In this document: piece by piece, positions 3,480-63,172 of the stretch
Position numbering within the stretch: position 1 is the stretch's first letter
Layout of the letters: every line of letters starts with the position of its first letter
Assembly (NCBI RefSeq): GCF_900079725.1
Contig: NZ_LT599032.1
Location: 1,170,871 to 1,234,870 of the forward strand
Direction: 5' to 3'
Source: an uncultured Dysgonomonas sp.
GTDB taxonomy: Bacteria > Bacteroidota > Bacteroidia > Bacteroidales > Dysgonomonadaceae
Length of the DNA: 64,000 nt
Notes under the pieces: model-generated
Told to the model about the DNA's origin: nothing
Seen by the model: only the letters and a program-made list of their open reading frames with translations
Databases searched by the model: none
Position numbers and translations under genes: made by a program

Positions 3480-4010
3480 ATGGAAACACAAACACTAGAA
3501 AAGCAACTACTATTTAAAATCAGAGCATTGACGATCTTCTATATCTTCGCTCTTTTCTTCTGGGGCGTTACAGCCTTTCCTGTCGAAACCGAAATCCGGA
3601 TTGTTTGCCAGATTATGGGCATATCACTTGATGTTTCGCCCGATAGTTACGAAGGATTCAATTACTGGATAGCCACCGTTGCCAACGGTTTAATAAATAC
3701 TAATCGAGACTACCCTTTCCTTGCTTACGGAACAGACTGGCTGGCATTTTCACATCTGGTGATCGCAGTGGCATTCATCGGCCTATACAGGAAACCTGTA
3801 CGAAATATATGGATAGTATATTTTGGGATGATTGCCTGTTTGGGTGTAATGCCTTTGGCTCTTATATGCGGTGCTGTGCGCGGCATCCCTTTTTGGTGGA
3901 GAATGATAGACAGCTCATTCTGCATATTCGGAATAATCCCGCTCTGTTTCTTACATATTTATATAAAGAAGCTAGAAAAACTAACCGGATACGTACCTTC
4001 TAAATACTGA
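3480..4010 (+). CDS. polytopic membrane protein, function unknown
   Basis: 176 aa with about four hydrophobic helices. It starts 8 bp after mtgA. I recognise no family motif. Confidence 0.6.
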   Translation: METQTLEKQLLFKIRALTIFYIFALFFWGVTAFPVETEIRIVCQIMGISLDVSPDSYEGFNYWIATVANGLINTNRDYPFLAYGTDWLAFSHLVIAVAFIGLYRKPVRNIWIVYFGMIACLGVMPLALICGAVRGIPFWWRMIDSSFCIFGIIPLCFLHIYIKKLEKLTGYVPSKY

Positions 4011-8790: not shown

Positions 8791-9101
8791 TACCCTGGAA
8801 ATATTTCGGCTGATTGCAAGATTAAAAGAAAAAGGCTGTAAACAGACCTCTGTTCTTTCCGCATGGTAAATACTTATACAATTAAGTAACAATAAGACTT
8901 TTATTAAAAAATCACAAATAATATATCTGACGTAACACATCTGTATTTTTTGCGTTAAATATATAAAGAACATAATACACATATTACTTTTTATTTTAGA
9001 TAAAAATAACACTACTAATCAGGAAGCATTTATCCGTGAGGATAGATGCTTTCACTTTTCAGACATCTCATACAATAACTAAAATCCATATAATCAATTT
9101 T

Positions 9102-9163
9102 TCAAAGAGCGATAAACCATCAGCCAATAGCTAACAGATTTTATAATATAGATAAAGTTTCTG
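9102..9163 (+). repeat. fragment of the mosaic intergenic repeat family (TCAAAGARC...ATAGATAAAGTTT module)
   Basis: Matches the modules at 18076-18120 and 27287-27336, and in inverted orientation at 59018-59078. Confidence 0.6.
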
Positions 9164-12733: not shown

Positions 12734-12880
12734 AAAAAGGTAACAAAGGTAACACAGAAAACAATTAATAATTAAGAATGAAAAATTAATAATTAGCTTG
12801 TCATGCTGAGCCGTGCGAAGCATCTCGCCAGAGAACAGTCATCGGTTAATAACTCGTCTACTCGTATCTAATATAACTTA
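12734..12880. repeat. mosaic intergenic repeat copy
   Basis: Contains AAAAAGGTAACAAAGGTAACAC, five AAT-type heptamers (12763-12797), a half core TTGTCATGCTGAG...GAAGCATCTCG (12798-12827), and CTCGTCTACTCGTATCT. Each of these also occurs at other loci in the window. Confidence 0.65.
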
Positions 12881-12890
12881 CAGCTTCCCT

Positions 12891-16594: not shown

Positions 16595-16975
16595 CTAGTC
16601 CTTGTGCTTTTTTTCCCAAATACGACGGCGGATCAATGTATCGCCTATCAAAAGCAAGAGTACTACACACGCTATGGAGATAATTAACGGATCAAATTTC
16701 ATCTCGGGCATGGTAAATGTCAGATCAATTTCCACTGGTTTTAATTCCGGTATAGACACCACGCCGAATAGCCAGAAAATAAGAGCGGGAATACCGAGCA
16801 TCCCGATAATTCCTCCGGCAATAGCCAGAGTAGACTTCAAACTTCTCCGTTTAGTTTGCTTTGCAGCAGCTATATGGACATGCTTCATCAACCGGTTTTC
16901 GAAATCGGCTGATGGCTCGTCTAATTTCACTTCCTGAAATAAACTCCTGAGCTTGTCTTTTTCTTCTGCTTTCAT
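16595..16975 (-). CDS. small membrane protein, putative anti-sigma partner
   Basis: 126 aa with two or three TM helices. Its start overlaps the stop of the upstream ECF sigma gene by 4 nt. Confidence 0.55.
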   Translation of the reverse strand: MKAEEKDKLRSLFQEVKLDEPSADFENRLMKHVHIAAAKQTKRRSLKSTLAIAGGIIGMLGIPALIFWLFGVVSIPELKPVEIDLTFTMPEMKFDPLIISIACVVLLLLIGDTLIRRRIWEKKHKD

Positions 16976-17526
16976 AATTGTATGAGTTTATTTATTTCAA
17001 AGTTCATAAATTTTCTTATCCTGTGCAACTTTACTTTCACATTTGCGATACTGTTGTTCGTTATATCACTTATCTGCTGTATGCTCTGGTTGTTCAGATA
17101 AAACATCGAGATCAGCAAAGCATCGTCGGGAGGCAGCTTTTTGAGCACTATATCCAGATATTGCAATTTATCTTCAACACTTATTTCGTCAATTGTATCA
17201 GCTATTTCCGCATCGGGCATATTGGCAAAATTATCTTCTATGGCTGTAAATTCATGTTTCCGCTTGCGCAATTCCGATATCGTTGTATTATAAGCGATGC
17301 GGTATAGCCATGTAGCAAATTCAGACTCTTCACGAAATTTATCCAGAAACTGAAACGCCTTGATAAATACTTCCTGTGTAATATCTTCGGCGTCTACCTT
17401 GCGGGAAACGATTTTGCTGACAATGGTAAATACCATTCTCTGATAGCGGCGTACTATATGCACGAAAGCATCAGTATGACCATCTTTGATCCGGCGTACA
17501 TAATAAATGTCATCAAAATCTGCCAT
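16972..17526 (-). CDS. ECF-type RNA polymerase sigma-70 family factor
   Basis: Region 2 (DAEDITQEVFIKAF, ATWLYRIAYN) and a region 4 HTH (SIQQISDITNNSIANVKVKLHRIR). I prefer the ATG at 17526 (MADFDD...) to the TTG at 17544. Confidence 0.9.
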   Translation of the reverse strand: MADFDDIYYVRRIKDGHTDAFVHIVRRYQRMVFTIVSKIVSRKVDAEDITQEVFIKAFQFLDKFREESEFATWLYRIAYNTTISELRKRKHEFTAIEDNFANMPDAEIADTIDEISVEDKLQYLDIVLKKLPPDDALLISMFYLNNQSIQQISDITNNSIANVKVKLHRIRKFMNFEINKLIQL

Positions 17527-17558
17527 ACCCGTATGACGCAACAAGATTGAATAGGTTA

Positions 17559-17566
17559 CAAATGTA
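17559..17566 (-). promoter_or_regulatory. candidate -7 box (TAcaTTTG on minus strand) for the sigma operon
   Basis: Plus-strand CAAATGTA lies 32 bp upstream of the ATG at 17526. Confidence 0.4.
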
Positions 17567-17641
17567 AATGAAAAAATTTCAGAAAAACATTTTAAAGCTT
17601 ATAGCCACCATCTATCTATAACAATTATGACCTAATATAAT

Positions 17642-18151
17642 AGGGCAAACGCACGAAATAGAGGATTTTAGCCATTGGCCTCATTCACATTTATTAACTG
17701 CATATAGTTAAAACCTGACACATCTGACACTTTTGGGACTATTTCCGTACTGTCATTTTTACATCCATTAATCATATATAGTTAAAAGGTAACAAAGGTA
17801 ACAGTCTTTTTAGCCTTTGTGTCCTTTGTGATTTCCTTCGTGTACTTAGTGTTTAAAAACTCTTTACCACAAGAGGCGCAAAGATTTACACAAAGAACAC
17901 TATTTACAGTCAACAGTCAACAACTTGTATCTCGTACCTCGTCTACTCGTATCTCATATAACTTTCAACTTAGTACTTAAAACTCATTACTTGTTAAAAA
18001 GGTAACAAAGGTTACACTTTTTCTACTTATTCTTTTTACTCTCATTGTAAGTCCCCCCTGGGGCTATCAATACATCAAAGAACTATAAGCTAACAGCTAT
18101 CGATATAGATAAACTTTCTGCATAAAAACACATATTTCGTGCGTTTGCCCT
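17642..18151. mobile_element. MITE-like non-autonomous element (510 bp) with 19-bp perfect TIRs and a 10-bp target-site duplication
   Basis: The left end AGGGCAAACGCACGAAATA (17642-17660) is the exact reverse complement of the right end TATTTCGTGCGTTTGCCCT (18133-18151). The direct repeat CTAATATAAT lies at 17632-17641 and 18153-18162. There is no ORF with coding character inside. Confidence 0.7.
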
Positions 18152-18276
18152 GCTAATATAATATTGAAATCCGGCAATAAATATTTTTTCATTTATTTTG
18201 TAACCTTTCTGTAACCCCTGCGTCAAAATGGACAAACGAACAAAACAAGAATGTTTAACTTCTAAAATTAGAAATT

Positions 18277-18702
18277 ATGGAAATGATAGGAATTGTATGC
18301 GTTGTAGGCATAATCACTTATGGAGTCTACCGCTTATTCGAATTATTCGCACGCCGCAGGGAACGTATGGCAATGATAGAGAAACTTTCGTCGGGTATAG
18401 ATCCGCAGATATTAAACAATCCCCTGCATATACAGAAATACAGGGATATTATAGTCGGATCATGGGCTATCCGCATCGGATTGCTACTTGTAGGTGTGGG
18501 ATTGGGAGTAGTGACTGCTACCGTTGTTGACCTACTTGCTGTAGCGCCGGCTGACACCGACAGCAGAATGTATCACGAGTTCAGGAACACCATTTCGGTA
18601 CTTTATCCTGCATGTGCAGCTGTTTTTGGTGGAATAGGACTGGTTATAGCCTACTTTGTGGAACAAAAGAACGAGAAGAAATCGAAAAGAAATGAAGAAT
18701 AA
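18277..18702 (+). CDS. small membrane protein (DUF6249-like), function unknown
   Basis: 141 aa with three TM helices and a basic C-terminus. The overlapping ORF 18228..18530 is out of frame and non-coding in character. Confidence 0.6.
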   Translation: MEMIGIVCVVGIITYGVYRLFELFARRRERMAMIEKLSSGIDPQILNNPLHIQKYRDIIVGSWAIRIGLLLVGVGLGVVTATVVDLLAVAPADTDSRMYHEFRNTISVLYPACAAVFGGIGLVIAYFVEQKNEKKSKRNEE

Positions 18703-26962: not shown

Positions 26963-27336
26963 AAAAAAAGGTAACAAAGGTAACAGTTTTTGTTCTTTAT
27001 GCCCTTTGTGATTTTCTTCGTGTACTTAGTGGTTAAATCTCTTTACCACAAGGAACACAAAGTGTTACACAAAGAATACTTTTTTCAGCAAACAGTTAGC
27101 AGTAAACAATCAACAATTAGAACTCCTTTATACTTATTACTCAATACTTACTACTTTGAAAAGGTAACAACCAACGGTCACAGGAGCGTAGCGTATGTAA
27201 AGGTTACACTTTTTTACTTATTACTTCTACCCTCTCTGTAAGTCCCCTTTGGGGGATTTAGGGGGCTGTTCATTCTTTCAAAGAACTATTCACTAATATC
27301 TAAAAACTATCAGCCACCGGTATAGATAAAGTTTTC
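26963..27336 (+). repeat. mosaic intergenic repeat, full-length copy
   Basis: Module order matches 17781-18120. The 52-nt block 27159-27210 is an exact reverse complement of 59477-59528. ORF 26990..27241 inside it is spurious. Confidence 0.75.
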
Positions 27337-32408: not shown

Positions 32409-32446
32409 GCCCCCTAAATCCCCCAAGGGGGACTTGCAATGAGAGT
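32409..32446. repeat. fragment of the mosaic repeat family (GC-rich hairpin word)
   Basis: GCCCCCTAAATCCCCCAAGGGGGACTTGCAATGAGAG is a near-exact reverse complement of 27225-27268 (CTCTCTGTAAGTCCCCTTTGGGGGATTTAGGGGGC). Confidence 0.65.
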
Positions 32447-32465
32447 ATAAGCTAAGATAATAAAA

Positions 32466-39727: not shown

Positions 39728-40255
39728 TCTATTTTTTCTAACGCGCCTGCTGTCTTGTTTTTCATTTTGCCTTGATGCAAAACGAAACAAAAAATCAAGG
39801 CTGCATCCCCCGGCGACCCAAAGCCGCAGCTTCGGTGGGGCAAAATAATACGGAATCATCTTTAGCCAGATTATCAACAGGGTATAGCAGCTACCGTATT
39901 TTGCCCTACACCTCCGCTTTACGGATTGGGTGCCCCGCCTGCGGGACGAGGCCGGAATCGCGATGCGACGACAGGACAAAGGCTCTCCGGGCTTTAGCCG
40001 CACGTGCGTCAGCAGCGCCGTTAGCTTTAAGTACGGGGCACCCATAGGACGAAAAAGGCGTTAAAAACAAAAACGTGTTTGAACTTATCCGCTGATGCGT
40101 ATTATATACATCCCGGAGCGAGTTTTTTTGTTTAGCCTTTGAGTCCGTTATGGGTCGGACATTGAAGCGGGGCGCTAAAGCATTTTTGGTTCCTTTTGGG
40201 GCTTAGGCCAAAAGGAATGCAAGCAATTTTAATTGCGCGCAGTAGAAAAATAGAA
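39728..40255. ncRNA. candidate large structured RNA or RNA-carrying miniature element (unclassified GC-rich island)
   Basis: About 58% GC by hand count over 39801-40040, against AT-rich flanks. Only mirror-image, non-coding-like ORFs cover it. There are many perfect helices, including an 11-bp long-range pairing (39927-39937 / 40034-40044), a cUUCGg loop at 39830-39835, and a 10-bp hairpin at 40190-40217. Imperfect inverted repeats bound it at 39728-39746 and 40235-40255. Strand is unresolved. The UUCG loop and one G-U weakly favour plus. Confidence 0.4.
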
Positions 40256-40310
40256 CATTTTTATACGACAATAATCTCTTCAACTACTTACTGGCAGAAT
40301 TTATAAAATA

Positions 40311-59009: not shown

Positions 59010-59640
59010 CTTTCACTGAAACTTTATCTATAGAATATCGCTGATGTATTTTTTCATCAGAAAATAGTTCTTTGAAGTATTGATTAGCCCCTCCATTGGC
59101 TCCGCTTCGCTCTGCCGATTTTGACTCCTTCGATTTGCAATTCAATTCTCCCCTCGGGGCAGCTCTGTTAAGTTCTCTGCTTTATCCTGTTACTTTCTGC
59201 TGTCATCCTGAGTGAAACGAAGGATCTCTTATCTTACAAGAGATGTTTCACTCCGTTCAACATGACAAAGAGGGTATAAATTTTAGAGCTTAACAGACCT
59301 GCCCCGAGGGCTGGCTACAGAGAGAGTAAAAGTAATAGATAGAAAAAGTGTAACCTTTGTTACCTTTTAACAAGCTATGAGTTGAAAGTAATAAGTTGAA
59401 AGTTATATGAGATACGAGTAGATAAGATACGAGATACAAGTTGTTAACCGACGGCTGTTAACCAATGACTGAAAATAGTGTAACCTTTACATACGCTACG
59501 CTCCTGTGACCGTTGGTTGTTACCTTTTTAACAAGTAATGAGTTTTAAGCAATAAGTAATAAGTTGAGAACTGTATTTCTGTTGACTGCTAACTGTTTAC
59601 TGTTAACTGTAAATAGTGTTACCTTTGTTACCTTTTAACT
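59010..59640 (-). repeat. largest copy of the mosaic intergenic repeat (inverted orientation), containing a nested hairpin-bounded mini element at 59152-59308
   Basis: The reverse complement reproduces the module order of 17781-18120 and 26963-27336. CCTCGGGGCAGCTCTGTTAAG (59152-59172) pairs 20/21 with 59288-59308. CTGNTNA heptamers x5 lie at 59579-59613. Confidence 0.75.
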
Positions 59641-59911
59641 AAATATAGTTGAGAATATAAAATTAGAATAAAGCGTCATTAATGAGATGAAAAGCAAATC
59701 TGGATTTACAGGGATTATTAATTTTTCATTCTTCGTTATTAATTACTTTCTGTTGCTTTTTCCACTCAAAATTTACATTATGATTATTAGTGTAATCCCT
59801 AGCTGTGAACAAAATAGAATATAGTAAAAAATATGTTCACGGATTAACAAATCATTTTACTTTTTAATCAAAAACGCATTCCATTTCTTTTGAAAATCCC
59901 TTTATTTAATC

Positions 59912-62780: not shown

Positions 62781-63134
62781 ATGGGAACTCATAAGGATTT
62801 GATTGTTTGGCAGAAGAGTATCAGTTTGGTGAAACAGATATATGTTGAAACTAAATCCTTTCCAAATGAAGAGTTATTTGGCTTAGTTTCTCAAATGAGG
62901 CGTTCATCTGTTTCTGTACCTTCCAATATAGCAGAAGGATTTGGTAGAGGTTCAAAAAAAGAATGTACACATTTTGTATACATTGCTTTAGGTTCTGCCT
63001 CGGAATTGGAAACACAAATGATAATTTCCAGAGAATTAGAATATTTATCAGAAATTGTGTACCAAACGCTGAATGCTTTACTTAACGAAATAATTAAAAT
63101 GTTGTCAGCTTTAATAAATTCTTTAAAACAATAA
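62781..63134 (+). CDS. four-helix-bundle protein (23S rRNA intervening-sequence protein / Avd family)
   Basis: 117 aa from the ATG at 62781. Hallmark blocks DLIVWQKSISLVKQIY, FPNEELFGLVSQMRRSSVSVPSNIAEGFGR and ALGSASELETQ. Confidence 0.85.
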   Translation: MGTHKDLIVWQKSISLVKQIYVETKSFPNEELFGLVSQMRRSSVSVPSNIAEGFGRGSKKECTHFVYIALGSASELETQMIISRELEYLSEIVYQTLNALLNEIIKMLSALINSLKQ

Positions 63135-63138
63135 ACTT

Positions 63139-63172
<34 letters not shown>

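Follow-up and report, generated by a model that had tools for sequence, protein, structure and literature searches.

A transposable element of the miniature inverted-repeat type (MITE) with ISAs1-type ends and a mosaic interior in a putative divergent promoter region of Dysgonomonas

The locus described here lies in a 64-kb window of a Dysgonomonas genome (the window being the whole stretch of DNA that was analysed, 64,000 nucleotides, to which all coordinates refer unless another locus is named), where a gene for an ECF-type sigma-70 family protein and a gene for a DUF6249 membrane protein stand back to back (Table 1). Each of the two is associated with a putative ECF-type promoter motif of the form GTAACC-N15-CGTC, and a search of the window for TGTAACC-N14-17-CGTC returned these two occurrences only, both with a spacer of N15. 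The divergent pair of motifs was present in nine of nine related loci (L025–L033, around positions 3800–3930), with the hexamers conserved and the spacers varying in sequence. Promoters of group 4 (ECF) sigma factors combine a GGAAC/GTAAC-type -35 element with CGTC at -10, and we infer from the sequence that the TGTAACC-N15-CGTC pair represents ECF-sigma-dependent promoters, an arrangement which suggests that the sigma factor may autoregulate its own expression and also drive the DUF6249 gene.

Between the two motifs lies an element that puts about half a kilobase between the promoters and leaves their -35 and -10 cores, as well as the A/T-rich tracts upstream of them, intact; the distance between the -35 boxes is 47 nt in most relatives and ~115 nt in D. 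gadei. A scan for sigma-70 promoters and terminators gave results at chance level with nothing inside the element. The -7 motif of Bacteroidetes promoters (TAnnTTTG), for which a scan was also made, was represented by one weak, inward-facing site with no -33 box; no outward promoter was evident. A preliminary description of this DNA had placed the insertion in the divergent promoter region and had proposed that it may alter the regulation of the neighboring genes. The position stands, as do the two neighboring genes that had been named; both promoter cores fall outside the element, an effect on regulation is possible and not indicated by the scans, and we would estimate the effect on the neighboring promoters to be close to neutral.

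The element is delimited by a 19-nt sequence, AGGGCAAACGCACGAAATA, at 17642–17660 and by its exact reverse complement at 18133–18151, a perfect terminal inverted repeat (TIR) that agrees with the preliminary description and lies far beyond chance, these being the only two matches in the 64 kb at up to three mismatches (chance expectation 0.01). Complementarity between the two ends reaches 29 nt at 86% (17642–17670 and 18123–18151). The direct repeat CTAATATAAT(A) occurs outside the TIRs at 17632–17642 and 18153–18163, with G18152 standing between the TIR and the right copy, an arrangement that had been read as a 10-bp target-site duplication with one extra G. The direct repeat is present as described, and its length and the status of the G have to be revised. 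Judged against the full-length relatives presented below, the element extends from 17641 to 18152, a refinement that gives a 512-bp unit with 20-nt ends reading TAGGGC... and ...GCCCTG, of which 19 of the 20 terminal nucleotides are complementary. The target-site duplication is better read as the 9 bp CTAATATAA, at 17632–17640 and 18153–18161, because the C that canonically terminates ISAs1 elements has its complement in G18152, which is thus the element's own base. A 10-bp duplication is possible if T17641 derives from the target, since the base after the target is also a T. The longest open reading frames inside the element are 43–53 aa and of low complexity, which bears out the earlier statement that the interior has no coding frame, and the predicted RNA fold of the element is dominated by its paired ends (z = -5.3).

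Table 1. Coordinates of the element, its parts, the neighboring genes and motifs, and the isolated mosaic fragments elsewhere in the window.
Feature	Position	Strand	Remarks
Mosaic tail alone	9089–9161		Intergenic
Single mosaic modules	12745–12886, 32421–32450, 40184–40296, 63134–63170		Intergenic
ECF-type sigma-70 family gene, left neighbor	16972..17544	-	Pfam Sigma70_r2 and Sigma70_r4_2
ECF-type promoter motif GTAACC-N15-CGTC, putative, of the sigma-factor operon	17535..17559	-	81 nt from the element's left end
Left copy of the 9-bp duplication CTAATATAA	17632..17640	.	Direct repeat; single copy in the UBA7710 empty site
Left TIR TAGGGCAAACGCACGAAATA, ISAs1-type end	17641..17660	+	Fits consensus CAGGGCAAACGCA; 18/20 against the L126 ends
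Left subterminal arm, specific to this MITE family	17661..17700	+	Also in L001; missing from the window's other mosaics
Mosaic interior (cargo)	17701..18118	+	Head motifs, then modules (hairpins, low complexity) and a tail
Right subterminal arm, specific to this MITE family	18119..18132	+	Within the 47–48 nt identical in the window, L001 and L206
Right TIR, CAGGGCAAACGCACGAAATA on the - strand	18133..18152	-	Canonical C of the family's ends appears as its complement, G18152
Right copy of the 9-bp duplication CTAATATAA	18153..18161	.	Direct repeat
ECF-type promoter motif GTAACC-N15-CGTC, putative, of the DUF6249 gene	18200..18224	+	47 nt from the element's right end
DUF6249 membrane-protein gene, right neighbor	18277..18702	+	Pfam PF19762

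The inverted repeat, which had not been recognized as belonging to a known IS family, can be assigned to ISAs1 on the basis of relatives that encode a transposase and of a family-wide consensus of ends. Exact matches to the 19-mer were found in 24 stretches of species-representative genomes from Bacteroidales, Gamma- and Deltaproteobacteria, and Bacillales, many of them at contig ends and most of them preceded by C. Several of these stretches contain an ORF that begins 30–100 nt inside the repeat and bears the DDE_Tnp_1_assoc domain (PF13808), and in MAGs of Bacteroidales and Dysgonomonadaceae the exact 19-mer stands directly upstream of ISAs1-type transposase N-termini (PF13808). Complete relatives (L108, L110, L111, L112/L113, and L126) are 1145–1172 bp long, have ends reading TAGGGCAAACGCAYGAAA... 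and ...CCCTA, and encode proteins of 363–401 aa that score 321–345 bits against the NCBIfam model NF033564, "ISAs1 family transposase" (cutoff 70 bits); for the L111 transposase, Pfam domains PF13808 and PF01609 were confirmed. With the outermost T...A assigned to the element itself, all five of the T-ended close relatives (L110, L111, L113, L119, and L126) are flanked by a perfect 9-bp duplication. A census of 31 full-length ISAs1 elements from many phyla, 1148–1404 bp in size, gave the end consensus CAGGGCAAACGCA, with positions 2–5 invariant, and duplications of 10 bp (n = 22), 9 bp (n = 3), and 11 bp (n = 1). ISAs1 elements are characterized in ISfinder by ends of CAGGG and by duplications of 8–10 bp, a description with which the census is in agreement.

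Read inward, the left end of the window element is TAGGGCAAACGCACGAAATA and its right end CAGGGCAAACGCACGAAATA, both of the ISAs1 type: their terminal 13 nt fit the consensus, and 18 of 20 nt are the same as in the ends of L126, a Prevotellaceae MAG that ranks with L108 (Bacteroidia bacterium PG1894_40) and L110/L111 (Chryseobacterium antibioticum) as the closest full-length relatives found. The 9-bp duplication is also that of the closest clade and falls inside the 9–11 bp measured for the family. Longer elements with the same ends, a search for which had been proposed with the preliminary description, thus exist, at 1.15–1.4 kb, with NF033564 ISAs1 transposases and duplications of 9–11 bp. 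The window element differs from them in its length (512 bp versus 1.15–1.4 kb), in having neither a transposase gene nor a remnant of one, and in its two terminal bases, T and C, which are unlike each other. A short-word BLAST against all ISAs1 loci found no similarity of either arm beyond the 20-bp TIR. An assignment as an ISAs1 insertion sequence proper was rejected for want of any coding remnant, in favor of a non-autonomous derivative with ISAs1 ends.

Two further sequence matches were noted in the course of these comparisons. A 13-nt identity, AATAGAGGATTTT, was seen by eye between window positions 17655–17669, just after the left TIR, and L004 5179–5193 (and the equivalent position in L011), where the ISAs1 transposase of Dysgonomonadaceae/Bacteroidales has, close to its start, codons for G-I-E-D-F; a deletion between two GAAATA/GGAATA repeats might have left this identity as a scar, but it is too short to rely on. 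In a Bacteroides MAG (L010 1325–4754), an ORF of 1131 aa with PD-(D/E)XK nuclease and SF1 helicase domains, and with weak, below-cutoff matches to anti-phage helicase models, has the exact 19-mer 15 nt upstream of it; a solo end or a match by chance is the probable explanation, since ~4 such 19-mer matches would be expected by chance in 596 Gb.

Orthologous loci were retrieved by a search with the DUF6249 protein, which is 97% identical in D. gadei ATCC BAA-286 (L025) and 96% identical in Dysgonomonas sp. UBA7710 (L026). The two flanks of the element align to L025 at 97.6% and 96.9% and to L026 at 93.8% and 90.2%, and in both genomes the two alignments abut with the element missing. UBA7710 reads ...ATTACCCAATATAATATTGAAATCC... 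(also given as ...CCAATATAATATTGAAATCC), with one copy of the target (CCAATATAA) and the right flank directly after it, and the empty site of the D. gadei type strain, ...ATGACCTAATATTGAAATCC..., is the same except that 4 nt of an AT-rich run are lacking. The empty sites that had been suggested as a check on transposition were thus found in two sister genomes, in UBA7710 with a single target. With respect to the 4-nt difference, L025 3880–3890 is without the 4 nt (TAAT/ATAA) that are present in L026 3875–3890 and in the reconstructed pre-insertion site of the window, and slippage in the TAATATAATATT run is the probable cause.

The filled allele was found in identical form in an ENA metagenome scaffold (L120). 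At this site the right arm of the element is present in four Logan assemblies. Three of the four have their break exactly 31 nt in from the right end, the behavior expected of a k = 31 assembler if those genomes contain the arm more than once; for a fifth Logan contig (L125), the overlap with the element is limited to its last 2 nt. The insertion very probably took place in the lineage of the D. gadei-like strain, after its split from the type strain.

Further copies of the element, which had likewise been proposed as a check, were found as the same arms at two more genomic sites. The D. gadei type strain carries a second copy at another locus (L001 4004–4368, 365 bp), in which the left 155 nt are ~85% identical and the right 48 nt 100% identical to the window element; its left TIR has a 3-nt deletion, and its duplication is the imperfect pair TTTAACGAA/TTTAATGAA, from which we take it to be an older copy. 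A metagenome contig (L206) has the right arm at a third site. In a three-way alignment of the window, L001, and L206, identity is complete over the last 47 nt as far as ...GCCCT and ends in the flanks with the very next base, and the junctions between arms and mosaic are the same in both copies that have a left end (the window and L001). Because these arms and junctions are common to separate sites, the transposase-less derivative predates the insertions and moved as a unit. The three known sites are a low copy number for a MITE, and the exact 19-mer occurs once in the type-strain genome.

Among the three copies, the right end was observed to vary in its outermost base, which is G in the window (18152), T in L001 (4004), and A in L206 (283). 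This variability could stem from mutation, from a tolerant terminal position, or from a flanking base carried over from the donor, and it might reflect an unusual cleavage step of ISAs1 transposases, the chemistry of which is to our knowledge uncharacterised. Short elements with ISAs1 ends also occur in other taxa: one of 258 bp in a Deltaproteobacteria MAG (L021 1694–1951), where the duplication is the 10-bp TGAGGACCGG, and ISAs1 deletion derivatives of 305 bp in Bergeyella porcorum (L114 2959–3265) and of 866 bp in a Flavobacteriaceae MAG (L119 2960–3827).

The interior of the window element is a mosaic. It contains the head motif TATAGTTAAAA twice, at 17703 and 17777, followed by low-complexity and hairpin modules, and ends in a tail composed of TCAAAGAACTAT (18075–18086) ... 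TATAGATAAACTTTC (18104–18118). Stretches that are 84–86% identical to this interior occur in mosaics at 26966–27254 and 59316–59646, and the same head and tail delimit mosaics at 26966–27335 and, on the - strand, 59018–59646. Together with the tail and the single modules that stand alone (Table 1), these form a family with a conserved head (TATAGTTAAAAGGTAACA) and tail (TCAAAGAACTAT ... TATAGATAAAGTTTC), four tails of which occur in the 64 kb and every copy of which in the window is intergenic. When the element was compared with the window by BLAST, the mosaic matches fell within 17772–18093 only and never in the arms (17641–17700 or 18119–18152), and no other ISAs1 end was found in the window with an 18-nt end at up to three mismatches. 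Since the other mosaics are without arms or ISAs1 ends, the mosaic family is independent of the MITE and much more abundant than it.

Although their right arms are identical, the three MITE copies have interiors that bear no relation to one another and that each resemble different dispersed mosaics. The simplest reading would be that interiors have been exchanged with other mosaics by recombination or template switching. That the ISAs1-type shell is a vehicle for a rapidly exchanging cassette of mosaic modules is a speculative extension of this reading which we consider unlikely. Searches of Rfam gave no match for the region at a permissive threshold, nor for the whole window at the gathering threshold, and a known structured RNA is not indicated. 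A minisatellite interior of the BrickBuilt kind was rejected, as TRF gave only 2-copy micro-repeats of 7–9 nt. Within the 59-kb mosaic we also noted a nested element at 59151–59310, which consists of 35-nt inverted repeats, 83% complementary, separated by a 90-nt spacer; the repeats contain a GC-rich hairpin motif, CCCTCGGGGCAG, and the nested element may be a REPIN-like doublet.

The transposase-less element at 17641–18152 is a genuine MITE: it is shorter than about 600 bp and has no transposase, it has TIRs, its duplication is matched by an empty site, and copies of it are present at several sites. The initial MITE reading, which had been based on the TIRs, the duplication, and the lack of a transposase in the window, thereby gains the support of empty sites, further copies, and transposase-encoding relatives. 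More specifically, we think it very probable that the element derives from the ISAs1 family and moved as a 512-bp unit into CTAATATAA, with the mosaic as its cargo. A tblastn search with ISAs1 transposase gave no match in the whole window, including the element's interior, in keeping with the earlier statement that the window has no transposase. With regard to a partner enzyme, an alignment-based scan showed no Dysgonomonas among the 600 stretches and best 80 ISAs1 loci listed, and a scan of close relatives comprised 15 loci in which the Dysgonomonadaceae were MAGs only.

Next to the observed ends and their family, the duplication, the empty sites, and the other copies, this account involves an enzyme that we infer to be an ISAs1 transposase mobilizing the element in trans. 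An ISAs1-type DDE transposase, supplied from elsewhere in the genome or from a transient element, would bind and cleave the two 20-bp ends, excise or copy the 512-bp unit, and insert it at a staggered 9-bp cut in CTAATATAA, whereupon repair of the cut would duplicate the 9 bp. Several observations count against the model: the left arms are ~85% identical versus 100% for the right arms, the outermost right base varies, the likeness to autonomous elements is limited to the 20-bp ends, three sites only are known, and no ISAs1 transposase turned up in the window or, among the best 80 loci listed, in a named Dysgonomonas genome.

Three other explanations for the structure were weighed. The preliminary description had left open whether the mosaic was captured by a transposable shell or whether the form with these ends is the intact mobile one and the mosaics elsewhere are decayed MITEs that lost their ends. 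The latter is consistent with the mosaic tail meeting the right arm at the same junction in three of three MITE copies, and with a weak resemblance to the right arm after the tail of the 27-kb mosaic (ACACTTATTCGC versus ACACATATTTCGTGCG). Against it, the BLAST matches to other mosaics in the window lie within 17772–18093 only and never in the arms, and the window has no other sequence within three mismatches of the 18-nt ISAs1 end; moreover, the four mosaic tails in 64 kb stand against a single exact 19-mer in the type-strain genome. We therefore consider the intact-form explanation very unlikely, and of the two alternatives originally put forward the capture of a mosaic as cargo in a transposable shell is the better one.

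It is also conceivable that a full-length ISAs1 element inserted at this site and decayed in place, through internal deletion and invasion by a mosaic, so that the short element itself never transposed. The duplication and the TIRs would look alike in that case, and deletion derivatives of ISAs1 do exist, as in L114 (305 bp) and L119 (866 bp), but the same subterminal arms are present at two other sites, in L001 with both arm/mosaic junctions as well, and no transposase remnant was found, which makes decay in place highly improbable. As for a local palindromic structure formed in place without transposition, only the inverted repeat itself and the end-paired RNA fold (z = -5.3) speak for it. 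It is refuted by the empty sites in the two sister genomes, and the flanking duplication, the copies elsewhere, and the identity of the ends with those of transposase-encoding elements of one family also speak against it, so that we assign it practically no probability. Transposition of a short, ISAs1-derived MITE with a mosaic cargo is thus the reading that we retain.

The window element shares with the prokaryotic MITEs reviewed in PMC10969869 its small size, TIRs, duplication, non-coding and intergenic nature, long hairpin, and ends belonging to an autonomous IS family, and differs from them in being known at three sites, a low copy number so far, and in that no cognate autonomous element was seen in Dysgonomonas among the best 80 ISAs1 loci listed. 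The BrickBuilt elements and MITEPgRS of Porphyromonas gingivalis, with IS5-type TIRs (GAGACC...) and tandem minisatellites of 23 or 41 nt, resemble it as strictly intergenic Bacteroidales MITEs in which a short leader arm and a short tail arm, with TIRs of an IS type, enclose a repetitive interior (PMC4596501), whereas in the window element the TIRs are of the ISAs1 type and the interior is pieced together from hairpin modules and lacks a tandem minisatellite. A BrickBuilt-type MITE was accordingly rejected as a classification: the TIR differs from GAGACC... (PMC4596501, Table 2), and TRF shows no minisatellite.

Sequences of the REP/BIME class have GTAG/CGTC-tagged palindromes that go with a RAYT transposase. 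With regard to the cargo and not the shell, a comparison can be made with the REP and BIME sequences of Proteobacteria, which are presented in PMC3733652 as mosaics with GTAG-tagged palindromes. The likeness consists in intergenic mosaics of short hairpins with GC stems, some of them starting with GTAG or GTAA, in variable order; the hairpin modules of the cargo look similar by visual inspection, and we would call this a resemblance only. Our literature search found no publication linking Dysgonomonas with ISAs1 or describing an ISAs1-derived MITE in Dysgonomonas, and among the few papers on ISAs1 and MITEs none was found that links a MITE to ISAs1.

The results assign a previously unrecognised inverted repeat to a defined IS family, and leave the understanding of such elements unchanged, the window element being of an ordinary kind. 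In Bacteroidota, short derivatives that are non-autonomous are supported by the ends of ISAs1, whose conservation extends across phyla, and L021, L114, and L119 are further candidates for such derivatives. As an insertion that is polymorphic among strains, the element could be used to type D. gadei-like strains, and it provides a natural experiment on whether 0.5 kb between back-to-back ECF promoters changes their output. The mosaics point to an abundant, undescribed family of intergenic repeats in Dysgonomonas, and if the shell were indeed a vehicle for exchanging cassettes, it would follow that mobile cargo and dispersed REP/BIME-like repeats frequently undergo recombination or template switching with each other in Bacteroidota.
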